DNA of 64,000 nucleotides from Omnitrophica bacterium GWA2_41_15 (GTDB taxonomy: Bacteria > Omnitrophota > Gorgyraeia > Ghiorseimicrobiales > Ghiorseimicrobiaceae), in the NCBI GenBank assembly GCA_919902105.1, contig CAKKQO010000023.1, forward strand, positions 2,128 through 66,127, given 5' to 3'. This document shows, one piece after another, positions 5,189-53,912 of this stretch. Under the pieces are notes generated by a model. It was not told where the DNA came from. It worked only from the letters and a program-made list of their open reading frames with translations, and ran no database searches. The translations under genes were made by a program, and so were the position numbers. How positions within the stretch are numbered: the first letter of the stretch is position 1; each line of letters opens with the position of its first letter.

Positions 5189-5360
5189 ATAATGAAAATT
5201 TTATGCGCCGCACGGAAATTTTTTGCCGACTGCTGCGATTTACAACTCGCAAATTTGCCGAAATTCCCTTACGGTCAGTTTCGGCATTTACTCATTGTAA
5301 TCTCTGGCAGTCTTTTGCCAAAAAATTTCTAATTGTGCTTGCTCATAAAATTTTCATTAT
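5189..5360. repeat. About 172 nt whole-length imperfect hairpin element (element E)
   Basis: Perfect 17-bp terminal inverted repeat, ATAATGAAAATTTTATG (5189-5205) with CATAAAATTTTCATTAT (5344-5360). Inner arms are also complementary (GAAATTTTTTGCCGACTGC / GCAGTCTTTTGCCAAAAAATTTC). Central hairpin TGCCGAAA..TTTCGGCA. Confidence 0.8.
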
Positions 5361-5388
5361 AATAAATTATCGCACCCTTAAACTTTGC

Positions 5389-5416
5389 TTGACTTTCTTG
5401 GGTAATGTGGTATAGT
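5389..5416 (+). promoter_or_regulatory. Candidate sigma70-type promoter for the OmpA-like gene
   Basis: TTGACT, 16-nt spacer, TGgTATAGT (extended -10), about 60 nt upstream of the AGGAGG-ATG at 5479. Confidence 0.45.
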
Positions 5417-5478
5417 TTTAGATAATTATAATTACCCGCCTAAAATATTCTAATAATATTTTTAATCAGGAGGTAGAG

Positions 5479-6156
5479 ATGTTGAGAGATGTAAAAAAAG
5501 GAATGTGGGTATTTTTTATTTTGGCATTAGCGGTTACGTTGAGCAGTTGCACTATAATTTTCCAGAAAGGAAGAAAGTCGGATGTCTCTCAAATAGAGAC
5601 TTTGAGCAAGCGGTTAAGTGAACTCGAGGATGTTAAAAAATTACTAGAGGAAAGGCTAAAGCAAGAAATTGCCGATAAACAGGTAAAGTTAGAAATGGCA
5701 GAGAAGGGTTTAGTGATTACCTTTCTTGCCGATATTCTCTTTGATTCAGGAAAGGCAGAAATCAGGCCGACAGCTTACGCGGCTTTAGATAAAATCGCTC
5801 GGGTGTTGAGTGAAAACGTCCCGGATATGAATGTAGGCATTGAAGGGCACACCGATAATGTTGCGATTAAACATTCAGGGTGGAAGTCTAACTGGGAGTT
5901 ATCGGCCCATCGCGCCTTAAGCGTATTGCATTATTTAGCAAACAAAAAAGGAGTTGCAGGAGAAAGAGTTTCGGCGATCGGCTATGGAGAGTTTCGTCCC
6001 GTCGCCTCCAATGATAGTAAAGAAGGGCGTCAGCTTAACCGCCGGGTAGAGATTGTTATCTTACCTAAGGTAACTAAGATAAAAAAGGCAGAAGCTAATA
6101 TGCCTCAAGAAGCACCGGCTGCTGAAGAAGTTGGGCAGGAAGAGAATTTGAAATAG
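5479..6156 (+). CDS. OmpA/MotB-domain peptidoglycan-binding lipoprotein with coiled-coil linker
   Basis: Signal plus lipobox (LTLSSC). C-terminal OmpA_C-like motifs (FDSGKAEI, GHTDN, NWELSAHRA, NRRVEIV). Strong RBS AGGAGG. Confidence 0.8.
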   Translation: MLRDVKKGMWVFFILALAVTLSSCTIIFQKGRKSDVSQIETLSKRLSELEDVKKLLEERLKQEIADKQVKLEMAEKGLVITFLADILFDSGKAEIRPTAYAALDKIARVLSENVPDMNVGIEGHTDNVAIKHSGWKSNWELSAHRALSVLHYLANKKGVAGERVSAIGYGEFRPVASNDSKEGRQLNRRVEIVILPKVTKIKKAEANMPQEAPAAEEVGQEENLK

Positions 6157-6663: not shown

Positions 6664-6669
6664 GTTAAC

Positions 6670-6789
6670 CCCGTTAGAGATAACACATCTCACTAAGCAA
6701 GCGGGGTTTGATAATTATGGAAGCATGAGTTTTATCGAGCGCAGGATCTTAAAGAGACGGTCGTCTAAAGACGACCTATCTCTAACGGG
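6670..6789. repeat. 120-nt element closed by a perfect 13-bp inverted repeat
   Basis: CCCGTTAGAGATA (6670-6682) pairs with TATCTCTAACGGG (6777-6789). Internal hairpin GGTCGTC-TAAA-GACGACC (6759-6776). The element ends 7 nt before the uppS ATG. Confidence 0.7.
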
Positions 6790-6796
6790 ATAAAAT

Positions 6797-7498
6797 ATGG
6801 TTCCTCAGCATATAGCAATTATAATGGATGGTAATGGCCGTTGGGCCGAGGCTCGCGGCCTTCCGCGCGCCTTCGGGCATAGAGAAGGCGTAAAGCGAGT
6901 AAAAGAAATAGTCAAGGCCGCCCAAGAATTAGGGATAAGGGTTCTGACTATATTTGCTTTTTCTACCGAGAATTGGGACAGGCCCAAAGAAGAAATCGAT
7001 ATGTTGATGAGATTTCTGGAAAATTACCTTAAAAGCAACGCCAAGGATTTAAAAAAGAAAAATATCAGGTTAAATGTAATGGGCAGGCGTGATCGTATCC
7101 CTGCGCGTTTAACCAAAGAGATTGAACACACAATTAAATTTACTAAAGATAATTCAGGATTTATCCTGAATTTGGCATTAGATTATGGCGGCCGTTTTGA
7201 GATAATCAATGCCGTAAAAACAATAACAAAAAAGGCAAGGGAAGATATATCTTTCGATATTGCCAAGATTACTGAAGAATATTTCTCTCAGCATCTTTAT
7301 ACGAATAATCTTCCTGACCCGGATCTTCTGATACGCACTTCGGGTGAGGAACGTATAAGCAATTTTATGCTTTGGCAGCTTTCTTATACGGAGTTATATT
7401 TTCCCGAAAAATTCTGGCCGGATTTTAAAAAGAGGGATTTAGAAGAAGCTATAGAATTATTTAATAAGCGCAAGCGTAGGTTCGGGAGAATAGAATGA
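6797..7498 (+). CDS. uppS: Undecaprenyl diphosphate synthase
   Basis: HIAIIMDGNGRWA, FAFSTENWDRP, RTSGEERISNFMLWQ motifs. Confidence 0.95.
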   Translation: MVPQHIAIIMDGNGRWAEARGLPRAFGHREGVKRVKEIVKAAQELGIRVLTIFAFSTENWDRPKEEIDMLMRFLENYLKSNAKDLKKKNIRLNVMGRRDRIPARLTKEIEHTIKFTKDNSGFILNLALDYGGRFEIINAVKTITKKAREDISFDIAKITEEYFSQHLYTNNLPDPDLLIRTSGEERISNFMLWQLSYTELYFPEKFWPDFKKRDLEEAIELFNKRKRRFGRIE

Positions 7499-8319: not shown

Positions 8320-9473
8320 TGCAGCCAAGCGTAAAACAGGTAATTATATTGGGTTCTACCGGTTCCATCGGAGAACATACTCTAGATGTGATTTCTCGCA
8401 ATAAAGAAAAATTTAGAGTATTGGGTTTATCCGCGCATTCTAATAGCGAATTGCTCTTAAAACAGATTGATAAATTTTCTCCTGAATATGCGGCGCTCGG
8501 CGATATAGATAAAGCAAAAGCAATAGAAAATAGGATTAAAGGCAGGACTAAAATTTTAAAGGGCGAAGACGCCATAGAAAATTTACTTGATAAAAAAAGC
8601 GATTTAGTAGTAGTGGCAATAAGCGGCGGCCGCGCTCTCTTACCCGTGTTAAAAGCCTTAGAGACGGCTAAAGCAATTGCTTTAGCAAATAAGGAAGCTT
8701 TGGTAATGGCCGGGCACTTGATAATGAAGAAGGCAGAAGAAAAAAAAGTTAAAATAATCCCTGTGGACAGCGAGCAGAGCGCGATATTCCAGTGCCTTAA
8801 AGATGAAAATACGCATGCAATAAAAAAAGTTTATTTAACTGCTTCCGGCGGGCCGTTAAAAAACATAAGCAGGAAAAATTTTTTTAAAGTTACTCCGGAT
8901 AAAGCCCTTAATCATCCACGCTGGAAGATGGGTAGAAAAATCTCCATTGATTCGGCAACATTGATGAATAAAGGCCTGGAATTAATCGAAGCAATGTGGT
9001 TATTCGCTCTTAAGTCAGAGGCAATAGAAATAATTATACACCCCGAGGCAATAATCCATTCTATGGTAGAATTTATCGACGGCGTAGTTTTAGCACAATT
9101 GGCAGTTGCCGATATGCGTATCCCTATTCAATACGCTCTAACGTATCCGGAGCGCATAAGTTCGGGTTTTAAAAGTTTAAATTTTTCCGCAATTAAAAAA
9201 TTGACTTTTGAAAAGCCCGATTTTAAAAAATTTCCCTGCTTGCGTTTAGCTAAAGAGGCCTCTCTTTCCGGCGGGAGTGCTCCCTGTGTATTAAATGCCG
9301 TCAATGAAGAGGCAGTGAATGCCTTTTTAGACAGGCGCATAAGTTTTATCGCTATCCCGAAAGTAATTGAAAAAGTTTTAAGCAGGCATAGAGTTGTAAA
9401 GTGTCCGGATTTAGAACAAATTTTAAAAACCGATGCCTGGGCAAGAAATGAGGTTAAATGTTTAATTTCTTAG
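8319..9473 (+). CDS. dxr: 1-deoxy-D-xylulose 5-phosphate reductoisomerase
   Basis: ILGSTGSIG NADPH motif, LANKEALV, NHPRWKMG, IHPEAIIHSMVEF. Confidence 0.95.
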   Translation: MQPSVKQVIILGSTGSIGEHTLDVISRNKEKFRVLGLSAHSNSELLLKQIDKFSPEYAALGDIDKAKAIENRIKGRTKILKGEDAIENLLDKKSDLVVVAISGGRALLPVLKALETAKAIALANKEALVMAGHLIMKKAEEKKVKIIPVDSEQSAIFQCLKDENTHAIKKVYLTASGGPLKNISRKNFFKVTPDKALNHPRWKMGRKISIDSATLMNKGLELIEAMWLFALKSEAIEIIIHPEAIIHSMVEFIDGVVLAQLAVADMRIPIQYALTYPERISSGFKSLNFSAIKKLTFEKPDFKKFPCLRLAKEASLSGGSAPCVLNAVNEEAVNAFLDRRISFIAIPKVIEKVLSRHRVVKCPDLEQILKTDAWARNEVKCLIS

Positions 9474-10534
9474 TTCCGATTATCATTTTAAGCGTTCTCA
9501 TTATCGTGCATGAATTTGGGCACTTTATTGTTGCCCGGCGCGTCGGCGTTAAAGTAGAGAAGTTTTCTTTGGGATTCGGCCCAAAATTATTCAGCATAAA
9601 AAGAGGCGATACTTTATACCAGCTCTGCGCTATTCCTTTAGGCGGATATATTAAGATGGCAGGCGATGAGTATGGCGAATACAAAGGCGCAAAAGATGAA
9701 TATCTGGCGCAAAAGCCTGCCAATAAAGCCAAGATTATTTTCGCCGGTGCCGGGCTAAATTACTTATTAGGCTTTGTCTTTTTTTCTTTTGCCTTACTCT
9801 TGGGTATCCCTGATTCTACTACAAGGGTGGGAGAGGTTGTATCGGGATATCCTGCTTTTGAGGCGGGAATATTGCCTAAAGACAAAATAATCGCCGTAGA
9901 TGGCAAGAAAGTAGAGTTTTGGATAGAAATGGTGGGGCTTATCCATGGGAAAAAAGGCGCAAAGGTCAATATAGCTTTATCAAGGGCGGATAAACTTATA
10001 GAATTAGAAATGCCTACCAAGTTAGAGGCCATTGAGACTACAGGAGGCAGGCATGAAATATCGCTTATCGGAATAAAACAAGGGCGTTTAAAATATGGGC
10101 TAAAAGATGCATTTGTTGTAGGCATAAAAGATTATTTAAAAACCACATTATTTTATTATAAGACGCTAGGATTAATGTTTAGCGGGAAAATATCTTTTAA
10201 ACGCTCTGTTGCCGGGCCTATCGGGATTTACTATATTACAACTGGGGCGGCTACGGCGGGTTTAGGCCCGTTGTTGTATGTATTGGCCATACTTAGTTTA
10301 AGTTTAAGCGTGATTAATTTGCTGCCCTTTCCGGTATTAGACGGAGGGCATCTTGCCTTTATTGCCTTAGAAAAAATCCGGGGTAAAGCATTGAACAGGA
10401 ATACTGAAGAGTTGATTACTCGGGTAGGGATGAGTCTGTTGATAACGCTTGCGCTTTTTACTATTTATAATGACATGGTGAATTTTTCTATTCTTGATAA
10501 CTTTCTAAACTGGATTAAATCTTTTAAGCGTTAA
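9458..10534 (+). CDS. rseP: RIP site-2 metalloprotease (M50)
   Basis: HEFGH zinc motif in TM1, an internal PDZ-like segment, and C-terminal NLLPFPVLDGGH. Confidence 0.9.
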   Translation: MFNFLVPIIILSVLIIVHEFGHFIVARRVGVKVEKFSLGFGPKLFSIKRGDTLYQLCAIPLGGYIKMAGDEYGEYKGAKDEYLAQKPANKAKIIFAGAGLNYLLGFVFFSFALLLGIPDSTTRVGEVVSGYPAFEAGILPKDKIIAVDGKKVEFWIEMVGLIHGKKGAKVNIALSRADKLIELEMPTKLEAIETTGGRHEISLIGIKQGRLKYGLKDAFVVGIKDYLKTTLFYYKTLGLMFSGKISFKRSVAGPIGIYYITTGAATAGLGPLLYVLAILSLSLSVINLLPFPVLDGGHLAFIALEKIRGKALNRNTEELITRVGMSLLITLALFTIYNDMVNFSILDNFLNWIKSFKR

Positions 10535-10541
10535 CCCTAAT

Positions 10542-10582
10542 AACACCTACGCGGTGTTACAGGTTAACACCGCGTAGGTGTT
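10542..10582. repeat. Perfect 18-bp stem hairpin between rseP and ispG
   Basis: AACACCTACGCGGTGTTA-CAGGT-TAACACCGCGTAGGTGTT. No T-run follows. Confidence 0.85.
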
Positions 10583-10601: not shown

Positions 10602-11717
10602 ATGAATATTGTTCGTCGTAAAACAAAAGAAATAAAAATAGGAAAAGTAAAAATAGGAGGCAATAACCCCATTGCTATACAGTCAATGGTAAAGGTTGAC
10701 ACGAAGGATATCGCCGCAGTTATCCGGCAGATAAAAAGTTTAGAAAAAGCGGGCTGTGAAATAGCGAGGGTTGCCGTTAAAGATAAAAATTCGGCCAAGG
10801 CAATAAGTAAGATTAGGCCTAAAATAAATATTCCTTTAGTTGCCGATATCCACTTTGATTATAACTTAGCGCTTTTGGCTGTAAAAAACGGGGTGGATAA
10901 GATAAGGTTAAATCCGGGAAATATTTTTAAGCCTAAAGAGGTGCGCGCGGTAACACTAGCGGCGAAAAGAGCTAAAATTCCCATCCGCGTGGGGGTAAAT
11001 TCTGGTTCGGTCAGAGGGGAATCCAGCGTGGACAACATGGTTAAAAATGCGCAGGATTACATAAAAATGCTGGAAGAATTTGATTTTCATAATATCATAG
11101 TTTCGCTGAAAGCATCAAATATTTTGGATACAGTTGATGCGTATCGTAAAATCTCTAAACTTTGTAATTATCCTTTACATTTAGGCGTGACTGCGACTGG
11201 TACCTCGTATTCGGGGGCAATAAAATCTAGCATTGCTTTAGGGGCGCTTTTATTAGAAGGCATAGGCGATACCATCAGGATATCGCTTACGGAAAAGCCG
11301 GAAGATGAGGTGAACACAGCAAAGATTATTTTAGGCGCCTTAGGGTTACGCCGTTTTGGGCCGGAGATTATCAGCTGTCCAACCTGCGGCAGGTGCGAAG
11401 TGGATTTGGTCAATATAGTTAAGAAACTAGAAAATTCGTTGGCCAGTTGGCCAGTTGGCCAGTTGGCCAGTATAACCGGCAAGCCGGCGGGGCACCCGCG
11501 AGAGCGGGTCGGGCAAGCCGGCAAACCACTAAAGGTGGCCGTAATGGGCTGTGTAGTCAACGGCCCGGGAGAAACCAAAGAAGCGGATATAGGCATTGCC
11601 TTTGGCAGAAAAGAAGGATTGTTATTTAGGCATGGTAAACCCATAAGAAAAGTTCCTGCAGATAGGTGCGTGGAAGTGTTATTAGAGGAAATGAATAAAG
11701 TTTACAATAAACTGTAA
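10602..11717 (+). CDS. ispG: 4-hydroxy-3-methylbut-2-enyl diphosphate synthase (carries a repeat-encoded insertion)
   Basis: [29 protein letters not shown] and GCVVNGPGE motifs. Start moved to ATG 10602 because the TTG at 10578 lies inside the upstream hairpin. Confidence 0.93.
   Translation: [371 protein letters not shown]
11439..11526 (+). repeat. Intragenic GC-rich repeat/palindrome block inside ispG
   Basis: TTGGCCAG x4 tandem (11439-11470) followed by CCGGCAAGCCGGCGGGGCACCCGC-GAGA-GCGGGTCGGGCAAGCCGGC. The ispG frame stays open through the block. Confidence 0.85.
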
Positions 11718-13467: not shown

Positions 13468-13476
13468 CTTAAATGA

Positions 13477-13537
13477 ACCCCGCCTTATAAGATACCGTAA
13501 AATTTTCTATCAATAATTTTACGGTATTCGGCGGGGT
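13477..13537. repeat. 61-nt compound hairpin between rimP and nusA
   Basis: Outer stem ACCCCGCC/GGCGGGGT. Inner perfect 13-bp stem ATACCGTAAAATT (13492-13504) / AATTTTACGGTAT (13515-13527). Confidence 0.8.
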
Positions 13538-13602
13538 CAATTCGCGCAAATAATTTACCTCAGTTTCACTTCTGTAAATTATGCGCTCATTGAGGGGGAA
13601 TA

Positions 13603-18749: not shown

Positions 18750-19817
18750 ATGCCAACAGGAAGAAAAAAAATACTCACAGATACTTCAGAAGTTAGCGCA
18801 CTCCCCTCAGATTTACTTTTAAAACAAGAGACCGATGAGGATATTGTTTTAAATCTTTCGCTTCGGCCTGCCAAATTATCTGAATTTGTCGGTCAGACCG
18901 GTACTGTAGAGAACTTAAAAATTGCAATTTGCGCCGCCAAAGAGCGCAAAGAGCCGCTGGAACATGTGTTTTTATCCGGGCCTCCGGGCTTGGGCAAAAC
19001 CGCGCTTTCCTATATTATCGCCCATGAGATGGGCACAAAGATTACCGCAACAAGCGGCCCTGCCATTGAGCGGGCAGGCGATTTAATCGGCATACTTACT
19101 AATTTAGAAAAAGGCGATATCCTTTTTATTGACGAGATTCACCGGATGTCTAAGGTAGCGGAGGAGTTTTTATATCCGGCAATGGAAAATTCGCAGATTG
19201 ATTTTATCGTAGATAAAGGCCCATATGCCCGCACCATAAAATTTAACTTAAAAAGGTTTACTCTTATTGGCGCTACCACCAGAAGCGGGCTTTTAAGTTC
19301 GGCGCTGCGTTCGCGTTTTGGCATATTTTACCATTTTGATTTTTATCCCCCTGAAGATTTAGCAAAAATTATCAAGCGCTCGGCGAAGCTTTTAGGCATA
19401 GATGTTAACGATGATGCCGCTTTAGAAATAGCACGGCGTTCGCGCGGCACCCCGCGTGTGGCTAACCGCCTGCTTCGGCGCGTGCGCGATTATGCGCAGG
19501 TAAAATCTAAAAGCAGCCTGATTACCCAGAAAATCGCCGATGAGTCGCTTTCCTGTTTAAGGATAGATAAAAACGGGCTTGATGAATGCGACCGCAAGGT
19601 CCTGCGCACGGTTATTGATGTTTATAGCGGCGGCCCCGTGGGTGTTGAGTCGCTTGCGGCAACACTTAACGAAGAGCAGGATACACTTATCGATACCGTA
19701 GAGCCGTATCTCTTAAAAGCCGGATACTTAAAGCGCACCTCGCGCGGACGCCTCGTTACAAAATTAGCCTACGAGCACCTCGGTGCCAAATACGATAAAC
19801 AGGAAGAGTTGTTCTAA
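18750..19817 (+). CDS. ruvB: Holliday junction branch-migration helicase RuvB
   Basis: LRP..L.EFVGQ, Walker [14 protein letters not shown], sensor [15 protein letters not shown]. Confidence 0.95.
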
Positions 19818-19992
19818 TTTTTTAACGGGTCCTGTCAAGGTTGTGCTTTCGCAAAAACGCTCGGTTTTCTCCAGCGAAGAAAACCTTCGCTCGGCAGTCG
19901 GCGTGCGCTCTGCCGATTTTCATCGGCAGCCATGTCCGCTTTGCGCCTCCTACGTTTTGCTTAAAGCACAAACCTTGCCACCCGCTAAAAAA
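19818..19992. repeat. About 175 nt whole-length imperfect hairpin element (element D)
   Basis: Begins on the base after the ruvB stop. Arms TTTTTTAACGGGT..CAAGGTTGTGCTTT..AAAACG and CGTTTTGC..AAAGCACAAACCTTG..ACCCGCTAAAAAA. Internal hairpins GGTTTTC..GAAAACC and CTGCCGAT-TTTC-ATCGGCAG. Confidence 0.8.
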
Positions 19993-20005
19993 TTGTTAAT
20001 GTATT

Positions 20006-20044
20006 TTGCTAAATCGTCAATTCGCTCAACCGACACAACAATAT
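20006..20044 (+). repeat. Solo 3'-arm-like fragment of the about 208 nt element family
   Basis: TTGCTAAATCGTCAATTCGCTCAACCGACACAACAATAT resembles the 3' arms TTGCTAAAATTGCAATGCGTTCAAGCGACACAATATAT (copy A) and GGCTAAAATTGCAATTCGCTCAAATGACACAGC (copy B). Confidence 0.6.
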
Positions 20045-20201
20045 CCTCTTAGAATATATTTAGCAGAGAAAAAGCGAACTCCGTTTATTAATTGTTACAT
20101 ATAAATATATTAAGGGGGGCGAGATGGAACGAAGGGAAGAGGGACACTCCTTGTAACATATTGTAAATTATAAGGTTACCATTATATTTATAGGTTTATA
20201 A

Positions 20202-20243
20202 AATTACCAGTTACGAGTTACGAATTACTGATTACAATTATGA
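20202..20243. repeat. Degenerate heptamer tandem repeat, 6 units
   Basis: AATTACC AGTTACG AGTTACG AATTACT GATTACA ATTATGA. Confidence 0.75.
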
Positions 20244-20272
20244 AACTACTTCTCTATACCTGTTGCGCGCGG
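20240..20272 (+). pseudogene. Orphan duplicate of the first 11 codons of queH
   Basis: ATGAAACTACTTCTCTATACCTGTTGCGCGCGG versus the queH start ATGAAACTCCTTCTCCATACCTGCTGTGCGCCG: 28 of 33 nt identical (MKLLLYTCCAR versus MKLLLHTCCAP). Located 152 nt upstream and in a different frame. Confidence 0.7.
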
Positions 20273-20349
20273 ATAAATTGCTTAACAAGGCAAATTTATT
20301 CGGATAAAATGCCTTTACCGGAAAACAAGGGGTTAAGTTTTGATTTTTG

Positions 20350-20369
20350 CCTGCCTGCCGGCAGGCAGG
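20350..20369. repeat. CCTGCCTGCC|GGCAGGCAGG perfect 20-nt palindrome, copy 2
   Basis: Read directly from the sequence. Lies 22 nt upstream of the queH ATG. Confidence 0.85.
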
Positions 20370-20391: not shown

Positions 20392-20934
20392 ATGAAACTC
20401 CTTCTCCATACCTGCTGTGCGCCGTGCTTGATTTATCCCTTAGAAGAGCTTAAGAAAAAGCGCTTTAAGGTTACAGGGTTATTCTATAATCCCAATATCA
20501 GCCCGCTGTATGAATATGATATACGGCTTAATGCCGTGAAGGATTATTCAAAAGATATTAAGTTTGATTTAATTGTTCATAAAAACGACTGCAACAATTA
20601 TTTAAATTTAGTGGCGGCTGATGAGGAAAAACCTGAACGTTGTAAAATCTGCTGGCAGATGCGGCTTCGCGAAACAGCCCAGTTTGCCAAGGATAATAAT
20701 TTTGACGGTTTCTCAACTACGCTTTTAGTCAGCCCTTATCAGGATCAGGATTTGCTTAAAGTTGTAGGCGAAGAAACGGCCCGCGATATAGATATTGAAT
20801 TTTATTTTGAAGATTTCCGCCCGGGATTTAGGTATGCGCAAGAGCTCGCCAAAAAACAAAACCTCTACCGGCAGAAATACTGCGGATGTAAGTATTCGGA
20901 GTTAGAAAGATGCAAGAAATCGGTAAAACCTTAA
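20392..20934 (+). CDS. queH: Epoxyqueuosine reductase QueH (DUF208)
   Basis: N-terminal LLLHTCCAPC plus C-terminal CxxC/CGC Cys motifs typical of DUF208. Start set at ATG 20392; the upstream extension from 20347 is encoded by the palindrome. Confidence 0.85.
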   Translation: MKLLLHTCCAPCLIYPLEELKKKRFKVTGLFYNPNISPLYEYDIRLNAVKDYSKDIKFDLIVHKNDCNNYLNLVAADEEKPERCKICWQMRLRETAQFAKDNNFDGFSTTLLVSPYQDQDLLKVVGEETARDIDIEFYFEDFRPGFRYAQELAKKQNLYRQKYCGCKYSELERCKKSVKP

Positions 20935-21125: not shown

Positions 21126-22288
21126 AAAAATTTAATAATTATAAGTTACGAGTTATAAGTTTAATTATTTTTTTGTTTTTAACTTATCACTTATCACTTA
21201 TCACTTATAATTATTCCTATGCCCAGCCGCAGAAAAGCCGCAATGTGCGCGTGCTCATTCTTAAAGGGGCAGAAAAATTTGACCTCTACATCAGAGGAAA
21301 ATATGAAATACGGTCACCGGACGGGAAAAATGTTATTAAAGAGGGTAAAGGTATAAATGCGAAGGTTTATGCTGATAATAACGCGATAAATATTTCCGAT
21401 ATTCGTATAAATGAAAATAAAATTATAATCTCTCCAGAGTCAGGGATTTTTTATCTCAATAATCGCCCCTTACGCGGCGGGCTAATTGTAAAAAAAGAAA
21501 ATGACTTAACTTTATTAGTAATCAATTATTTAGATTTAGAAGATTATGTTAAAGGGGTTCTTTTCCATGAAGTTTCGCATCACTGGCCGATTGAGGCGAT
21601 TAAGGCGCAGGCAATAGCCACGCGCACGTATGTGCTTTATCAGGTAGAGGTGAGTAAAGATAAAGACTACGATGTAACCAGCGATATTTATTCGCAAGTA
21701 TATGGCGGCAAAGACGCGGAAAGATACCGTACCATTAAGGCGGCAGAGGAAACTGAAGGCGTGGTCTTAACTTGTAAAGCTAAAGTTTTTCCGGCTTATT
21801 TTCATGCTACCTGCGGCGGGAAAACCGAAGATGCAAGCGAATTATGGCAGACAGACCTGCCTGCCTTAAAAGGCGTTGATTGCGGTTTCTGTTTTAAGTC
21901 ACCGCATTTTAAATGGCAGAAGGTATTTAGCAAAGATGAGCTTATAAAAAGGTTAAATTCTTCAGGGTATCGCTTTACTTCTTTAGAGGGCATCCAAATA
22001 TTAGGCCGCGACAAATCAGGCAGAATCAGAAAACTAAAGTTAAAGTCAAAAGATGGTGACGTGTTTATTCCTGCGAAAGATTTCCGCCAGCTCGTAGGCA
22101 CAAGAGTTATCCGTTCTACTAACTTTGCTGTAAATAAATCCGCAGATAATATCTATTTTGAGGGCTTTGGCTGGGGCCATGGCGTGGGGATGTGCCAGTG
22201 GGGGGCATATTTTATGAGCATTAAAAAATATAAGTATCAGGATATCCTTAAGTTTTATTACCCCGGAGCAGAAATAGAGAAAATATGA
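21110..22288 (+). CDS. SpoIID/LytB-domain protein (peptidoglycan remodelling)
   Basis: Motifs LEDYVKGVL..E, AIKAQAIATRTY, CGG.TED, and C-terminal GHGVGMCQWGA. The N-terminal hydrophobic segment is encoded by repeat DNA, so the start is uncertain (TTG 21104 or ATG 21110). Confidence 0.85.
   Translation: MVPSIKKFNNYKLRVISLIIFLFLTYHLSLITYNYSYAQPQKSRNVRVLILKGAEKFDLYIRGKYEIRSPDGKNVIKEGKGINAKVYADNNAINISDIRINENKIIISPESGIFYLNNRPLRGGLIVKKENDLTLLVINYLDLEDYVKGVLFHEVSHHWPIEAIKAQAIATRTYVLYQVEVSKDKDYDVTSDIYSQVYGGKDAERYRTIKAAEETEGVVLTCKAKVFPAYFHATCGGKTEDASELWQTDLPALKGVDCGFCFKSPHFKWQKVFSKDELIKRLNSSGYRFTSLEGIQILGRDKSGRIRKLKLKSKDGDVFIPAKDFRQLVGTRVIRSTNFAVNKSADNIYFEGFGWGHGVGMCQWGAYFMSIKKYKYQDILKFYYPGAEIEKI
21134..21215. 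repeat. Inverted-repeat plus heptamer-tandem block at the 5' end of the SpoIID-like gene
   Basis: AATAATTATAAGT (21134-21146) pairs with ACTTATAATTATT (21203-21215). ACTTATC x3 tandem at 21182-21202. AAGTTAC GAGTTAT AAGTTTA heptamers. Confidence 0.75.
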
Positions 22289-22301
22289 AGTTTTACTAGA
22301 A

Positions 22302-22506
22302 ATATATTATGTCGTTTTCACTTAGATGCAATTTTTTAACGCAAAGGTCTTTCACAATTTCGGTGGCTGCGGAACTCGTTCTTCGGCACCTTCGTGCCAA
22401 GAATGAACTCAAACATCCTCGCCACCCCGATATAGACCATCGGGGTTCCCGCAATTCCTCAAGCTGCTTTGCTAAAATTGCAATGCGTTCAAGCGACACA
22501 ATATAT
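22302..22506 (+). repeat. About 205 nt whole-length hairpin element, family copy A
   Basis: Terminal arms ATATATTATGTCG / CGACACAATATAT. Shared core CTGCGGAACTCGTTCTTCGGCACCTTCGTGCCAAGAATGAACTCAAACAT. Internal hairpin CCCCGAT..ATCGGGG. Confidence 0.9.
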
Positions 22507-22532
22507 TTCTTCTAATAAATTAATTAAAAAAT

Positions 22533-23558
22533 ATGAAACTCTCCGATTTTGATTACAATTTGCCTAAAGAATTAATCGCTCAGTATCCGTCAAATGTGCG
22601 TGATGCCAGCCGCCTTTTGGTAGTAGATAGAAAAAATGAAAGTATTGCGCATAAAAAATTTTCCCGGATACTGGAATATTTTAATCCGGGGGACCTGCTG
22701 GTTTTAAATAACAGTAAAGTTCTGCCGGCACGTGTATTCGGCAGAAGAGAAAAAACCGGAGCAAAAATAGAATTTTTGTTAATTAAAAAAGAAGGCGGCA
22801 CTTTTTCGGTAATGGTAAAACCGGCAAAAAAATTTCAAATCGGAGAAAACATTGTTTTTGGCGAAAATAACGGCGGGCTTTATGCAAAAATAGTAGATAA
22901 AAATAAAATTGCTTTTGAGAGAGGTAATCCCGATGAAATTTATAAGCTCGGAACAATGCCGCTTCCCCCATATATTAAAAGGAATTCCGAAGGATTAGAT
23001 TTTGAAAGGTATCAGACAGTTTTTGCTAAAATTCCCGGTTCAATTGCCGCCCCAACCGCGGGGTTACATTTTAGTAAAGAGCTATTAGGCGAAATTAAGG
23101 ATAGAGCCGTAGAGGTTAACTATGTTACTTTACATGTGGGTGTGGGGACATTTAAGCCGGTAAAGACAGAAGATGTCGCTAAACATAAAATGGAGCCGGA
23201 ATTTTTTGAAATAGGCCCAGAGTTGATAGGAAGTATAAAAAAAGCAAAAAAACAAAAAGGGCGTATTTTTTCCGTAGGGACTACCAGCTGCCGTGTTATC
23301 GAAACAATAACAGAATTACCTATTGTCCATGACTTATCACCTGTAACCCATTCAGGATTTACTAATCTATTTATCTATCCCGGATATAGCTTTAAAGCGG
23401 TAGATTGCCTTTTGACTAATTTTCATTTACCTAAGACCACGCTTTTTATGCTGGTTTGCGCTTTCGCCGGCCGCGAGTTAATTATGCGGGCTTATCAGGA
23501 GGCGATAGAAGAAAAATACCGTTTCTACAGTTACGGCGATGCGATGTTGATAGTGTGA
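22533..23558 (+). CDS. queA: S-adenosylmethionine:tRNA ribosyltransferase-isomerase
   Basis: MKLSDFDY.LP..LIAQ.P, PARL-like, TAGLHF, VGTTS.R..E motifs; 341 aa. Confidence 0.95.
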   Translation: MKLSDFDYNLPKELIAQYPSNVRDASRLLVVDRKNESIAHKKFSRILEYFNPGDLLVLNNSKVLPARVFGRREKTGAKIEFLLIKKEGGTFSVMVKPAKKFQIGENIVFGENNGGLYAKIVDKNKIAFERGNPDEIYKLGTMPLPPYIKRNSEGLDFERYQTVFAKIPGSIAAPTAGLHFSKELLGEIKDRAVEVNYVTLHVGVGTFKPVKTEDVAKHKMEPEFFEIGPELIGSIKKAKKQKGRIFSVGTTSCRVIETITELPIVHDLSPVTHSGFTNLFIYPGYSFKAVDCLLTNFHLPKTTLFMLVCAFAGRELIMRAYQEAIEEKYRFYSYGDAMLIV

Positions 23559-23574
23559 CGATATTGTTGAGAAA

Positions 23575-23630
23575 CGTAAAACTGATGGAATTTCTTATTG
23601 TGTGCTTTCAGAAATTCCATCAGTTTTGCG
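23575..23630 (+). repeat. 21-bp stem hairpin after queA
   Basis: CGTAAAACTGATGGAATTTCT - 14-nt loop - AGAAATTCCATCAGTTTTGCG. The single non-Watson-Crick position is a T:G pair on the + strand. Confidence 0.85.
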
Positions 23631-23681
23631 TACCTCTATAATCTTTAACAGAGCCGAACAGGCTGATTTTGTGAGGGGGTA

Positions 23682-27276: not shown

Positions 27277-28971
27277 ATGCTAAGCGATATTGAGATAGCA
27301 CAGGCGGCAAAACTAAAGCCAGTCCAGAAAATAGCCGCATCTATCGGTATCAAAGAAACCGATTTGGAACTATACGGAAAGTATAAAGCTAAAGTTCTGC
27401 CCACTGCTTTAAAAAAGATAAAGACTAAAAGGCAGGCGAAATATGTTTTAGTTACAGCAATTACGCCTACGCCCTTAGGTGAGGGTAAAACCGTAACCAC
27501 TATTGGCCTATCCATGGCGCTAAATAGGATAGGCAAAAAAGCTATTGCTTGTATCCGCCAGCCGTCGCTTGGCCCAGTCTTTGGGATTAAAGGAGGGGCG
27601 GCCGGAGGCGGGTATTCGCAGGTAGTGCCGATGGAAGATTTTAACCTGCATTTAACCGGCGATGTGCATGCCGTAGGACTTGCGCATAATTTATGCGCCG
27701 CTTTTTTGGAGAACGCTTTATTCAGGAAAAAACTTAATATTGACCATAAAGCCGTTTTTTGGCGAAGAGTTCTAGATGTAAGCGACAGGTCATTACGTAA
27801 AATCAGCGTTGGTTTAGATGATAAGGTAGATGGGGTTTATCCCAGAGAGACCGGTTTTGATATTACAGTGGCGTCTGAAATAATGGCAATTTTAGCGCTT
27901 TCAAGTGATCTCCAGGATTTACGCCGTCGTCTCGGCAGGATTGTCTTAGCCAAGACTTTTGACGGTAAATATGTTACCCCTGAAGATTTAAAGGTTGCCG
28001 GCTCAATGGCAGCGCTTTTAAAAGACGCGGTGCACCCAAATTTAATGCAGACTTTGGATAATACTCCTGTCTTTGTGCATGCCGGGCCGTTTGCCAATAT
28101 CGCGCATGGAAATAGCTCTATTATCGCCGATAAAATCGCGGTAAGTTTAGCGGATTTTGTAGTAACAGAGGCAGGCTTTGGCGCAGACTGCGGGGCAGAG
28201 AAATTTTTTGATATTAAATGCCGCGTCAGCGGCCTTAAGCCGGATGCGGCAGTTTTAGTCTGCACCGTGCGCGCCTTAAAAATGCACTCTGGTAAATTTA
28301 CGGTTAAGCCGGGCAAGCCGCTTGATGAGGGATTACTCCGTGAGAATCTTCCTGCTATTAGAGAGGGTGCTGCAAACTTAGAAAAACAGATTGAGAATAT
28401 TAAAATTTTTGGTATCCCGGTTGTAGTGACGATTAACAGATTCTCCGCCGATACAGATAAAGAAATCGCCTTAATTAAAGAGATTGCCAAAAATGCCGGA
28501 GCCGAAGATGCGATAGTTAGTGATTTATTCGCCAAGGGCTCAAAAGGCGGAGAGGAATTAGCCGAGAAGATAGTTGAAGTCTCCAAGAAAAAAGCGAATT
28601 TTAAATTTCTTTATGAACTGGATAGCACGATTGAAGAAAAGATGTGGGTAATTGCTACCAAGATTTACGGGGCAAAGGATATTGATATTTCGCCGAAAGC
28701 TTTAGAACAGATAGAAGAATTTAATAAATTAGGTTTTAATGGGCTTCCTCTGTGTATGGCAAAGACGCATTTGTCGCTTTCGCATGACCCGGAATTAAAA
28801 GGACGGCCGAAAGACTTTGTCGTGCCAATCCGCGAAATAAAAGTCTCTGCGGGTGCCGGATTTTTATACGCGCTCTTAGGCGATATGCGCACTATGCCGG
28901 GGTTGCCTTCTGTTCCGGCAGGGACAAAGATAGATATTGATAAAGATGGAAAGATAGTGGGATTGTCATAA
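27277..28971 (+). CDS. fhs: Formate-tetrahydrofolate ligase
   Basis: SDIEIAQ, TPTPLGEGKTT, GIKGGAAGGGY, and PLCMAKT.LS.S near the C-terminus; 564 aa. Confidence 0.97.
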   Translation: MLSDIEIAQAAKLKPVQKIAASIGIKETDLELYGKYKAKVLPTALKKIKTKRQAKYVLVTAITPTPLGEGKTVTTIGLSMALNRIGKKAIACIRQPSLGPVFGIKGGAAGGGYSQVVPMEDFNLHLTGDVHAVGLAHNLCAAFLENALFRKKLNIDHKAVFWRRVLDVSDRSLRKISVGLDDKVDGVYPRETGFDITVASEIMAILALSSDLQDLRRRLGRIVLAKTFDGKYVTPEDLKVAGSMAALLKDAVHPNLMQTLDNTPVFVHAGPFANIAHGNSSIIADKIAVSLADFVVTEAGFGADCGAEKFFDIKCRVSGLKPDAAVLVCTVRALKMHSGKFTVKPGKPLDEGLLRENLPAIREGAANLEKQIENIKIFGIPVVVTINRFSADTDKEIALIKEIAKNAGAEDAIVSDLFAKGSKGGEELAEKIVEVSKKKANFKFLYELDSTIEEKMWVIATKIYGAKDIDISPKALEQIEEFNKLGFNGLPLCMAKTHLSLSHDPELKGRPKDFVVPIREIKVSAGAGFLYALLGDMRTMPGLPSVPAGTKIDIDKDGKIVGLS

Positions 28972-29180
28972 GATAGCTGCTGTATCATTTTCGCTCAGGT
29001 GCAATTTTTATACGCCAAGTTCTCGGCATTTTAAGCGCCTGCGTAACTCGTTCTTCGGCACTTTCGTGCCAGGAATGAACTCAAACATACTCGGCGTCCC
29101 GCTCTCTGAGCGGGATGCCTTAAAATGCCTGTGCGTGCTTGGCTAAAATTGCAATTCGCTCAAATGACACAGCAGCTATC
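28972..29180 (+). repeat. 209 nt whole-length hairpin element, family copy B
   Basis: Perfect terminal arms GATAGCTGCTGT / ACAGCAGCTATC. Sub-terminal GGCATTTTAAG / CTTAAAATGCC. Shared core CTGCGTAACTCGTTCTTCGGCACTTTCGTGCCAGGAATGAACTCAAACAT. Hairpin CCCGCTC-TCTG-AGCGGG. Confidence 0.9.
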
Positions 29181-29188
29181 TAAACAAA

Positions 29189-29662
29189 ATGATGTACAAG
29201 AATCAATCTCTTAAAAAATATCTCGATGATTTGGCGGGAAAGCTGCCCGCACCCGGAGGAGGTAGTGCCGCCGCCCTTAGCGGCGCTTTGGGTTGCGCGC
29301 TTTTGTCAATGGTATCTAACTTTACCGTTGGCAAAGAAAAATACAGGAAATACGAAAAAGAAATAAAAGGTATTTTATTAAAGTGCGAGAGTTATAGGAA
29401 AAGGTTTTTGGAGTTAGTGGATTTAGATGTTAAAACATATTCAGCTTATGCTAACGCTAAAGACAAAAAATCTAAAAGTATGGCGAAAAAAGAATCGCAG
29501 AGAGTAGCTAAAGAAATTAACTCTTTAAGTTATAAAGCAATACAATTATGTTTTCCTTTGGCGGAAAAAGGCAATATATATTTGATAAATGATGTCTTAG
29601 CCGGCGCGGAACTTTTGAGCGCCGCCTTTAATGCGGCGTTGATTAACATAGAAGCCGAATAA
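29189..29662 (+). CDS. fchA: Cyclodeaminase/cyclohydrolase-family protein (methenyl-THF cyclohydrolase FchA-like)
   Basis: LPAPGGGSAAALSGALGCALLSMV signature. Sits between fhs and folD. At 157 aa it is shorter than typical family members. Confidence 0.75.
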   Translation: MMYKNQSLKKYLDDLAGKLPAPGGGSAAALSGALGCALLSMVSNFTVGKEKYRKYEKEIKGILLKCESYRKRFLELVDLDVKTYSAYANAKDKKSKSMAKKESQRVAKEINSLSYKAIQLCFPLAEKGNIYLINDVLAGAELLSAAFNAALINIEAE

Positions 29663-41747: not shown

Positions 41748-41789
41748 GGACATAAGTTATGGAACGAAGTGAACATAACTTATTAGTCC
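41748..41789. repeat. CATAAGTTATG-type hairpin after rho
   Basis: GGACATAAGTTATG - 12-nt loop - CATAACTTATTAGTCC. Same motif type as 29813-29857. Confidence 0.8.
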
Positions 41790-41796
41790 AAACTTA

Positions 41797-41834
41797 CCCC
41801 CACTGCTTCGCTTTGCGAAGCAAAGCGGTGGGGG
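41797..41834. repeat. GC-capped long hairpin upstream of rpmE
   Basis: CCCCCACTGCTTCGC-TTTGC-GAAGCAAAGCGGTGGGGG. No T-run follows. Confidence 0.8.
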
Positions 41835-41850
41835 TCATTAAGGAGAAAAA

Positions 41851-42048
41851 ATGAAAGATAAAATTCATCCGAATTATCAGGATGCTTCAATTATCTGCGC
41901 TTGCGGCGAGATAATCCAGACGCGTTCGACTAAACAGAATATCCGTGTAGAAATCTGCTCTAAGTGCCACCCATTTTTTACGGGTAGGCAGAAATTTGTC
42001 GATTCAGCGGGGAGAGTAGATAAGTTTATGAAGAAGTACAAAAAATGA
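41851..42048 (+). CDS. rpmE: 50S ribosomal protein L31 (Cys-containing form)
   Basis: MKDKIHP.Y start, CxC ... [10 protein letters not shown]. Confidence 0.95.
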
Positions 42049-45215: not shown

Positions 45216-45779
45216 GTGATTCTCATGATTGATAATTACGACTCATTTACTTATAACCTCGTTCAGTATTTAGGAGAATTAGGAGGGGACCTGCGTATAT
45301 TCCGCAATGATAAATTAACAATTTCTCAAATAAAAAAAATAAAACCTAAAAAAATCGTTATTTCTCCCGGCCCTGGTAGGCCATCTGATGCCGGGATTTC
45401 TTGCGCGGTAATAGAGCAATTTGCCAAGACCATACCTATCTTAGGTGTATGCTTGGGGCATCAATGTATAGGCGATGTTTTCGGCGGAAAAATCATCCGT
45501 GCGGATAGGCTTATGCATGGAAAGACTTCGCTTATTTATCACAACGGAGAAGGCATTTTTAAAAATATTAAAAGTCCTTTTGAAGCAACGCGTTATCATT
45601 CTTTATTGGTTGAGAAAAAAAGCCTGCCCGGGGCTTTAGAGATTACCGCTTGGACTAAAGAAAATGAGATAATGGGGCTAAAACACAGAAATTTTCCCCT
45701 TTGGGGGGTACAGTTTCATCCGGAATCGATTTTAACCAAGCCGGGTAAAGAGATACTAAAGAATTTTTTGATGTTGTGA
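45216..45779 (+). CDS. trpG: Glutamine amidotransferase component II (anthranilate / aminodeoxychorismate synthase)
   Basis: IDNYDSFTYNL, GVCLGHQ (catalytic Cys), GVQFHPES. Start is GTG 45216 or ATG 45225. Confidence 0.9.
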   Translation: MILMIDNYDSFTYNLVQYLGELGGDLRIFRNDKLTISQIKKIKPKKIVISPGPGRPSDAGISCAVIEQFAKTIPILGVCLGHQCIGDVFGGKIIRADRLMHGKTSLIYHNGEGIFKNIKSPFEATRYHSLLVEKKSLPGALEITAWTKENEIMGLKHRNFPLWGVQFHPESILTKPGKEILKNFLML

Positions 45780-45789
45780 TACTATAAAG

Positions 45790-45997
45790 CAGGTTATTAT
45801 TCATTTTGAACGATTTGCAATTTTCGTCAGGAGTCGTAGAGATTTTAAGGTTCCCCGCCAACGGCGGGGCGCCGAGGACTGTCTGAATTCATTCCTGGCA
45901 CGGAACGTGCCGAAGAATGAGTTCCGCAGGTGCCTTAAAATATCGAGAAGCTGACGTTAAAAAATTGCATCAGAGTGAAAAATGACATAATAACATG
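45790..45997 (-). repeat. 208 nt whole-length hairpin element, family copy C (inverted relative to A and B)
   Basis: The reverse complement aligns with copies A and B: core CTGCGGAACTCATTCTTCGGCACGTTCCGTGCCAGGAATGAATTCAGACA, hairpin CCCCGCC-GTT-GGCGGGG, arms CAGGTTATTATTCATTTT.. / ..GAAAAATGACATAATAACATG. Confidence 0.9.
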
Positions 45998-46025
45998 CTG
46001 TATGCTATGATGATTAATTAGTTTT

Positions 46026-53837: not shown

Positions 53838-53860
53838 TTCATCAGTTAGCATGGTACAAA

Positions 53861-53912
53861 CAGCGGCCAGATTGCTTTAATATTATTGGGGCAAGCTGCC
53901 CGCTGTTTTTTT
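53861..53912 (+). terminator. Probable intrinsic terminator
   Basis: CAGCGGCCAG ... CTGCCCGCTG stem followed by TTTTTTT (53906-53912). The loop is unusually long. Confidence 0.5.

Follow-up and report, generated by a model that had tools for sequence, protein, structure and literature searches.

A large hairpin, here called hairpin D, directly follows the stop codon of ruvB in a 64,000-nucleotide stretch of contig CAKKQO010000023.1 of Omnitrophica bacterium GWA2_41_15 (hereafter the window), and is itself followed by a solitary arm of another hairpin repeat, the A family. Comparison of this junction with related loci (given below by codes such as L027) supports a turnover of hairpin repeats at the ruvB stop. 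The spacer between ruvB and queH is probably a recurrent landing site for hairpins that resemble miniature inverted-repeat transposable elements (MITEs) or the hairpin-forming doublets (REPINs) of repetitive extragenic palindromic sequences (REPs), and D appears to be bound to this locus, lodged in a decayed A element. What is said below on the succession of events, on how the elements move and on a role as RNA is inferred.

Structure of hairpin D and its relation to the A family

An earlier note, made from the sequence of the window alone, had described positions 19818-19992 as a whole-length hairpin of about 175 nt, and the predicted folds agree with this description. The outer stem pairs TTTTTTAACGGGT (19818-19830) with ACCCGCTAAAAAA (19980-19992), the second stem pairs CAAGGTTGTGCTTT (19836-19849) with AAAGCACAAACCTTG (19963-19977), and a third stem is formed at about 19850-19859/19950-19959. 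Two inner hairpins lie at 19863-19885 (GGTTTTC/GAAAACC) and 19910-19929 (CTGCCGAT/ATCGGCAG); the arms and inner hairpins quoted in the note were confirmed in the sequence together with their positions. When 19810-20000 was folded as RNA, the plus strand reached -73.4 kcal/mol (z -6.9) and the minus strand -84.0 kcal/mol (z -8.1), and the plus strand folded as DNA reached -46.3 kcal/mol (z -7.2). Each of the three folds is a whole-length branched hairpin, and in each of them none of 200 shuffles folded as well.

The 5' base of D is a motif of the A family, the 12-mer AATTTTTTAACG, whose three occurrences in the window are solely in D and in copies A and C of that family; in L027 and L031 a full A 5' arm ends in it. 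The 3' base of D, CCCG(Y)TAAAAAA, is new and perfectly complementary to this motif. Apart from the 12-mer, D shares with the A family just GCTAAAA(AA)TTG, and no similarity of its interior to the A interior was detectable. The linker TTGTTAATGTA, which follows D, is conserved in L027 and L021 and is part of the D/scaffold unit. Judged from these alignments, D sits in an A scaffold without the conserved core of the family and is not an A copy.

As in MITEs, D is short (175 nt), contains no gene (the overlapping open reading frames, ORFs, have no Pfam match) and has terminal inverted repeats, formed by its stems of 13 bp and 14/15 bp. The 5-nt sequence TTGTT lies on both sides of D in the window and is not common to L027. 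The layout would also suit a REPIN, with ends about 90% conserved and an interior that is barely alignable yet folds similarly; the ends, however, are rich in A and T and do not form small GC-rich palindromes of their own.

On the plus strand, D is preceded by T6 and followed by A6. No plus-strand terminator was found at D by the terminator scan and, since no U-tract follows, D is not an intrinsic terminator. Rfam 15 gave no match at gathering score in the whole window, and around D, A, E and F (the last two being further hairpin families, described below) only chance-level matches far below the gathering scores were obtained at E<=10. A preQ1-type riboswitch ahead of the queuosine genes was rejected, as it had no Rfam match; an integron attC site, a retron and a bridge-RNA gene were also rejected, since no integrase, reverse transcriptase or recombinase is encoded nearby and the flanks are housekeeping genes.

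The solo arm downstream of hairpin D

Positions 20002-20037 belong with 22465-22500 and 29136-29171 to one repeat family without gaps (D3), whose members are 75-86% identical. Blastn within the window gave this solo arm E-values of only 0.003-0.011. A profile of the A-family 3' arm, built with nhmmer from four intact copies (A, B, C and the copy in L005) and excluding the solo arm, matched 20005-20047 at E=2e-5 (21 bits), and the next match outside the family had E=2.6; the consensus of the 3' arm that the solo arm follows is GCTAAAATTGCAAT.CG.TCAA..GACA. The earlier note had allowed for a similarity within chance for AT-rich sequence, and the profile value places it beyond chance. The profile of the 5' arm recovered all the intact copies and nothing near ruvB except the 12-mer AATTTTTTAACG at 19816-19827, which is the best 5'-arm match in the ruvB spacer and the sole piece of an A 5' arm left there, so that the claim of a 3'-arm likeness without a 5' arm stands.

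The notion of one truncated arm had to be given up, since the solo arm is composed of parts of two successive A 3' arms; L027 and L031 still have these arms, (i) and (ii), apart from each other. The proximal part has orthologous pieces in L027 (9363-9390), L021 and L031, and its variant AAATCGTC is the complement of GACGATTT, a variant that lies within the 5' arm of the copy found here in L020. The distal part is similar to the sequence past the conserved arm at the 3' end of copy A (56 nt, 75%, E 8e-4), and arm (ii) stands alone in L026, L027 and L031. The alignment of the window with L027 has a gap of 57 columns flanked by AATTCGCTC and AAATTCGCTA, which suggests that arms (i) and (ii) were fused in the window by the loss of about 57 nt between direct repeats AATTCGCTC.

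In L027, arm (ii) is flanked by an imperfect direct repeat of about 16 nt, TATATTTAG.CAGAGAAA, at 9404-9424 and 9476-9496, which is single in L021 (about 11345-11366). This repeat could reflect either a 5'-truncated insertion with target duplication or a precise loss in L021.

The block downstream of the solo arm is 79-83% identical to L027 9431-9518 and L026 1201-1271, though the RuvB proteins are only 79-84% identical, and it is possibly the promoter or leader of the next gene. No sigma-70-like site scored in the block. Its motif GCGAACTYCGYYTATT lies downstream of arm remnants in the window, L021, L026 and L027 (twice in L026, at 1258-1275 and 1352-1375), every occurrence being some tens of nt ahead of the next gene, and it may be a regulatory site. 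A role of the 3' arm as an outward promoter was not supported, as judged by a consensus that may not be that of this phylum: TTGCAA-18-TATATT is found only in copy A and not in the solo arm or copy B.

The ruvB junction in related genomes

The corresponding junctions in relatives display several states of these repeats. In the closest relative by SpoIID (77%) and QueA (73%), L031, the A element at the ruvB stop is canonical and complete and is followed by an isolated arm (ii); its outer stem of 20 bp, AAATGAATTCGGTAGTTTT/AAAACTACCGAATTCATTT, begins in the last codons of ruvB and includes the stop. In L020 (RuvB 97%; sample SRR22388260) the contig ends inside the repeat, after an A 5' arm and interior that make up three quarters of the element or more, counted from its 5' end. 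In L027 (RuvB 84%) the A 5' arm ATCCGGTAATTTTTTCGTTTTTAGGCCGATTTTTTAACG is followed by a D-type hairpin at 9178-9346, by 3' arm (i) and then by arm (ii). The minimum-energy fold of L027 9140-9412 encloses D in an outer stem of 18 bp, in which outer arm (i) pairs with the 5' arm. In L021 (RuvB 85%) the stop is immediately followed by an E-type hairpin, behind which come the 3' arm of D alone and arm (i); the D 3' arm (D 140-175 against L021 11270-11305) is 94% identical over 36 nt to that of the window (blastn, E 1e-10). Only the distal part of arm (ii) and the downstream block are present in L026 (RuvB 79%), and L023 (RuvB 81%) has no comparable hairpin.

The A outer stem supplies the last codons and the stop of ruvB in L031, L027 and L020, and ruvB is longer by two or three codons in these loci. 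After ruvB, the L020 and L027 junctions match at 16 of 19 positions when compared at equal offset; 2 of 2000 shuffles scored as high, and by this measure the two junctions are homologous. The window lacks the scaffold outer stem on either side, ruvB ending there in TTC TAA, and no single clean deletion series could be derived for its 5' junction. The nested or truncating insertion that the earlier note had proposed is thus partly upheld by the states found in relatives: nesting and truncation are seen there, and D occupies the place of the A interior instead of standing beside a half element.

In L032 (RuvB 72%), the ruvB-queH spacer contains at 5377-5860 a broken gene resembling that of a REP-associated tyrosine transposase (RAYT; NCBIfam NF047646, E 3.7e-6, 26.9 bits) with the HUH motif MPNHLHGI. 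This gene is interrupted and flanked by GC-rich REP-like palindromes. As a link to the mobilising enzyme of the present families it was rejected and is kept as a lead only, as Pfam and PDB searches were blank and its REPs are unlike A, D, E and F.

The A family and other hairpins inserted between genes

Copies of the A family were found three times in the window (A, B and C), twice in L031 and once each in L005, L020 and L033. Six copies from three genomes have a common fold, with a long closing stem, conserved arms and a three-way interior, in which a strongly conserved hairpin, GTTCTTCGGCAC..GTGCCARGAAT, is accompanied by a second, variable one; 22 of the 63 pairs are compensatory in these six copies. 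The elements are 208-238 nt long. The arms of A, B and C have 25-29 nt and 83-84% complementarity, with further pairing inside, and the outermost 13-25 bp of the stem differ in each copy, yet remain complementary.

Copy A is the clearest case of insertion. Its 238 bp lie between the genes of SpoIID and QueA, which overlap without a spacer in L021 and L023, and the sequence AAAATATGAA, present once in these relatives, occurs twice in the window. The overlap in relatives therefore identifies copy A as an insertion with a target duplication of about 10 bp. At the FTHFS/FTCD_C junction, where the window has copy B, L027 has an unrelated hairpin. The trpG/trpD junction of L033 (about 90-300) contains an A-type variant in opposite orientation to copy C, with similar outer stems ATGTTATTRTGTC and with other stems replacing both inner hairpins. 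This difference could result from an inversion between the arms or from an independent insertion into the same palindrome.

Copy A and its counterpart in L031 (2363-2600) are 98% identical, with four substitutions and one indel in 238 nt, most of which fall in predicted loops or keep the pair as a wobble. Their flanking genes are about 75-78% identical in DNA, and 72-78% at third codon positions in the immediate flanks, and other orthologous A and E copies are only 78-80% alike. These values suggest either strong constraint on copy A or a recent exchange.

Public genomes and metagenomes were scanned with one exact pattern, the inner hairpin of A. GTDB species genomes gave one real match, L005 (a metagenome-assembled genome of Omnitrophota), and five chance matches, and all nine matches in the metagenomes of the Joint Genome Institute were due to chance. 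Viral contigs had no match to the A, F or D patterns. L005 was rejected as a syntenic comparison, as its site is not syntenic with the window.

Two other hairpins, E and F, also differ in presence among relatives. The interior of E is conserved, and the copy located after ruvB in L021 has different outer termini; the F copies have only termini of about 17 nt in common (AACCCCGTTAGAGAT...ATCTCTAACGGGG), with unrelated interiors and possible TA flanks. The IF2/TrpRS junction contains an F hairpin in L020, an E hairpin in L021 and L027, and none in the window. A structured insert of 135 nt with two adjacent hairpins (13468-13602, z -5.5) was also observed between RimP and NusA, where it replaces GTTTAA and gives RimP a new TAG stop; L020, L021 and L027 lack this insert. 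Insertions recast the upstream stop from TAA to TAG at RimP, at IF2 and, in L021, at ruvB. From these comparisons, A, E and F show differences between filled and empty sites among relatives. The activity at some time that the earlier note had read from the ruvB spacer is accordingly seen in the turnover of repeats and in A, E and F, whereas these comparisons gave no such evidence for D.

Conservation of hairpin D

The D orthologue of L027 has the same fold. The two sequences have 39 pairs in common, all of which are paired in both and 16 of which are compensatory, against 1-4 in slid controls, a contrast somewhat inflated because the shared structure was derived from the same two sequences. 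The interiors are barely alignable; the outer stem and 3' flank are about 90% conserved, in comparison with 84% for the RuvB protein. G-U occupies only 3 of the 78 paired cells. D has thus kept its shape under sequence drift, almost all the changes preserving Watson-Crick pairs as far as these two sequences tell. With so few G-U pairs and with both strands able to fold, a DNA palindrome whose arms change in step is at least as good an explanation as a selected RNA. Arm-to-arm template switching, which corrects quasi-palindromes, would be the main cause of this retention of shape, and the persistence of D may owe something to weak selection as well, acting on a hairpin in which the ruvB transcript has its 3' end.

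Weighing of the explanations

In the explanation that we favour, A, E and F would be small non-coding, non-autonomous repeats moved in trans by an enzyme encoded outside the window. An A-type element would have inserted at the end of ruvB in an ancestor, and the branched hairpin D would then have replaced the canonical A interior in the lineage of the window, L027 and L021, taking the 5'-arm motif AATTTTTTAACG as its 5' base and acquiring a new complementary 3' base. Two later deletions in the window would have removed the outer stem of the scaffold, so that D now abuts ruvB, and the same events would have joined arm (i) to the older arm (ii), giving the solo arm at 20004-20052. Several observations weigh against this explanation. 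No mobilising enzyme was identified in the 64-kb window and the flanks of its contig, a clean target duplication was found for copy A only, and the F and RimP/NusA junctions are small replacements and not clean duplications. The 5' arm of L027 scores only 2 bits against the family profile. D is found in the window, in L027 and partly in L021, and the canonical interior in L020 and L031; this distribution is not tree-like and does not fit a single replacement, so that a further process has to be invoked, either lateral exchange or gene conversion with other A copies as donors. The scans also underestimate the A family, because the L033 variant lacks the scanned pattern, and the absence of other D copies carries little weight, since the search covered 85 kb of this genome.

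The earlier note had taken D as a second element family, and D could in principle be an independent mobile hairpin, with other copies elsewhere, that transposed into an A element at the TTTTTTAACG bulge of the 5' arm and deleted the A interior. The lack of detectable similarity between the two interiors argues for this, as do the terminal inverted repeat of 13-14 bp that D has of its own (perfect in L027), its nesting inside the A outer stem in L027 and the example of F, which likewise has conserved termini around unrelated interiors. We nevertheless consider it unlikely. In the 306 kb compared, of which about 180 kb are clade sequence, the only pairs of D-type termini are the orthologous ones (window 19820-19990 and L027 9185-9352), blastn of both D orthologues against all the loci found no other D copy and only the 3' arm in L021, and no D-type match occurs in viral contigs; the dispersed copies expected of a MITE are present for the A family and were not seen for D in this sequence. 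In addition, the 5' terminus of D, being identical to the A 12-mer, is more simply explained as part of the scaffold, and the window and L027 have no conserved direct repeat on the flanks of D. D therefore did not hold up as a family of its own and would be a locus-bound derivative, not a demonstrated mobile family. The possibility that D is a selected structured RNA with an incidental mobile ancestry, be it a small RNA or a cis hairpin that stabilises the ruvB message at its 3' end or is processed there, seems to us somewhat more doubtful still. The compensatory changes in barely alignable interiors and the conservation of the outer stem and 3' flank speak for it, as does the slow change of copy A beside the third codon positions of its neighbours, and co-transcription of D is likely because it comes directly after the stop in a string of genes of the same strand. 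D is, however, dispensable: the locus has the A interior in L031 and L020, has lost three quarters of D in L021 and has no D in L026, L023 and L032. The scarcity of G-U pairs and the equal foldability of both strands fit a DNA palindrome better, no Rfam family emerged even at E<=10, and the missing U-tract speaks against a terminator.

Another explanation concerns the manner of movement, namely that the elements are REPIN-like, single-stranded DNA hairpins moved by a RAYT (an HUH enzyme) and not by a DDE transposase that makes duplications. The layout of D and F, with conserved inverted ends around a spacer that keeps only its length and foldability, and the solo arms, which parallel REP singlets, are as described for REPINs (PMC3116915). 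The broken RAYT gene of L032 lies in the same ruvB-queH spacer, and 10 of 11 A and E copies (seven A and four E) are in plus orientation as compared, window copy C being the exception, the genes next to these copies being also on the plus strand where checked. We hold this explanation as improbable, since the 10-bp direct repeat of copy A is not a product of HUH transposition, the conserved ends are AT-rich and not short GC-rich palindromes, no RAYT was seen in the window, and the L032 fragment, whose flanks are REPs of the classical GC-rich type that do not resemble A, D, E or F, matches its family at 26.9 bits, far under the 80-bit cut-off, with nothing in Pfam or PDB. It is also conceivable, if only tentatively so, that the hairpins of Omnitrophota form a distinct modular class defined by structure, in which D, as a structured module peculiar to its lineage, would serve the ruvB transcript at its 3' end and which would spread as neither DDE-MITE nor RAYT-REPIN, for example by insertion into existing palindromes or by a copying from the 3' end that is often left incomplete. 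This idea draws on the swapping of interiors in a constant scaffold (D against the canonical A core at the ruvB site), the different orientation of the core at one junction (copy C against L033), the copy-specific yet always complementary outer stems, the insertions that hit stop codons and supply new ones, the survival of older layers as 3' arms only, and the evolution of copy A (SpoIID/QueA), about 10 times slower than that of neighbouring third codon positions, which could indicate a domesticated RNA or DNA function. Finally, a chance hairpin with chance AT-rich similarity, or a real small protein gene at 19783-20052, can practically be dismissed. The weak raw blastn values of the solo arm and an ORF of 89 codons (89 aa, GTG start) that spans D would fit it; none of the 200 shuffles folds as well, the arm profile gives E=2e-5 and complete orthologous elements exist in relatives. 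This ORF has no Pfam match, is not called in the public annotation of the source contig and lies in a region not conserved as coding sequence among relatives, and in the light of these searches it is an artefact, as the earlier note had supposed; the chance or gene explanation is refuted. The favoured explanation is that of a recurrent landing site with D in a decayed A element.

Genomic context and coordinates of the features

The window lies in an 85.5-kb contig of the metagenome ENA ERZ1292641, which comes from groundwater of the Hainich. The strain is represented by four public contigs (L001-L004), which are 99.9-100% identical across the region and therefore show no polymorphism, and all the close RuvB homologues are from Candidatus Omnitrophota. 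Genes of the plus strand are closely packed around ruvB, whose TAA stop (19815-19817) adjoins hairpin D without a gap. The next real gene is queH, which starts at 20392, and the public annotation calls no gene in the spacer between the two. No transposase or recombinase is encoded in the window or the contig flanks. The coordinates of the main features are listed in Table 1.

Table 1. Position of the hairpins, arms and associated features in the window, and in related loci where indicated
Feature	Position	Strand	Evidence or remark
ruvB, 355 aa	18750-19817	+	ORF list; Pfam RuvB domains in public gene calls
A-family 5'-arm motif AATTTTTTAACG, 5' base of D	19816-19827	+	12/12 match to copy A
Hairpin D, whole-length branched hairpin of 175 nt	19818-19992	+	Folds; L027 orthologue folds likewise
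D 3' arm	19957-19992	+	L021 retains nothing else of D
Linker TTGTTAATGTA between D and A 3' arm	19993-20003	+	Alignment of four spacers
Solo arm, proximal part TTTTGCTAAATCGTCAATTCGCTC	20004-20027	+	Inner part of 3' arm (i); profile match E=2e-5
Solo arm, distal part AACCGACACAACAATATCCTCTTAG	20028-20052	+	Outer part of older A 3' arm (ii)
Conserved block AATATATTTAGCAGAGAAAAAGCGAACTCCGTTTATTAA, with motif GCGAACTYCGYYTATT	20053-20091	+	Alignment with relatives
Copy A (hairpin 22293-22515)	22290-22527	+	Direct repeat AAAATATGAA at 22280-22289 and 22528-22537
Copy B	28962-29190	+	Between FTHFS and FTCD_C genes
Copy C	45779-46008	-	Between trpG and trpD
E hairpin	window 5189-5360; L021 8028-8226 and 11069-11268; L027 6128-6304		
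F hairpin	window 6665-6797; L020 5363-5494		

Other features were observed in the surroundings. A remnant ORF of 10 codons (MERREEGHSL) with a strong ribosome-binding site lies at 20125-20157, in the position of a gene of 133-148 aa that is located between ruvB and queH in L021 and L027, which suggests a gene loss in the lineage of the window. About 150 nt ahead of the true start of queH there is a second copy of roughly its first 32 nt (20241-20273 and 20392-20425), with about 118 nt of unrelated sequence separating the two copies, and a perfect palindrome of 21 nt, GCCTGCCTGCCGGCAGGCAGG, is found upstream of queH at 20349-20369 and is missing from L025 and L031. A simple hairpin with arms of 33 nt (23563-23642) is located directly 3' of the queA stop; the spacer after queA is 83% conserved in L021 (121 nt) and partly in L027. 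Further plain intergenic palindromes are located at 10542-10582, 41780-41851 and 53858-53908.

Comparison with known systems and significance

REP singlets are remnants of hairpin-forming REPINs, in whose hairpins compensatory changes are common (PMC3116915). Like the REPINs of Pseudomonas and enterobacteria, which are moved by RAYTs, the elements described here are intergenic, non-coding, whole-length hairpins with conserved inverted ends and a foldable spacer, with frequent compensatory changes and with half-element remnants, to which the layout of D and the solo arm can be compared. They differ in being 125-240 nt long, AT-rich and branched, whereas REPINs have about 100 nt and two short GC-rich REP palindromes; in having few copies seen so far, 74-89% alike, instead of tens to hundreds of nearly identical ones; in having no known RAYT gene of their own, the only one being broken and beside other REPs in L032; and in the 10-bp direct repeat of copy A. 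Among MITEs, the Bacillus repeat bcr1 has direct repeats of 5 bp and keeps a cruciform-like fold through compensatory changes (PMC3184786). With the bacterial MITEs (bcr1 of the Bacillus cereus group, Correia of Neisseria, ERIC, Nezha and Chunjie) our elements share a length of 100-400 bp, the lack of a transposase gene, terminal inverted repeats, a location between operon genes, presence or absence among close relatives and, in copy A, a short direct repeat at the insertion site. In such MITEs, however, the outermost termini are typically the best conserved part, whereas A and E keep the core and vary in the outer 13-25 bp, which nevertheless remain complementary; moreover, no parent insertion sequence with matching ends is known here, and D was seen at a single locus.

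The bacterial interspersed mosaic elements (BIMEs) of E. coli accumulate palindromic units in one spacer, in combinations that vary between relatives, and are regular arrays of 35-nt REPs in alternating orientation. The ruvB spacer is similar in its piled units and relative-specific combinations and differs in that the units are large unrelated hairpins, the older of which survive as 3' arms. The correction of quasi-palindromes by template switching is a mutational process described in E. coli. It would explain the changes in both arms of D without selection as well as the near absence of G-U pairs, and is a process and not a family of elements. A literature search for such repeats in Omnitrophota found nothing relevant; the A, E and F families are new, and their kind, MITE/REPIN-like, is broadly familiar.

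For candidate phyla whose genomes are compact, there are hardly any descriptions of small hairpin repeats. At the ruvB junction the complete, interior-swapped, half-deleted and remnant states occur at one place, so that the birth, replacement and decay of repeats can be read from it. For annotation, these hairpins create false ORFs, break assemblies (as in L020) and rewrite the last codons and stops of housekeeping genes. If selection lies behind their structure-preserving evolution, these hairpins would add new cis-acting RNA elements to what is known of operons in an uncultured phylum; if template switching is the cause instead, they would provide a clean natural example of palindrome arms evolving in concert.

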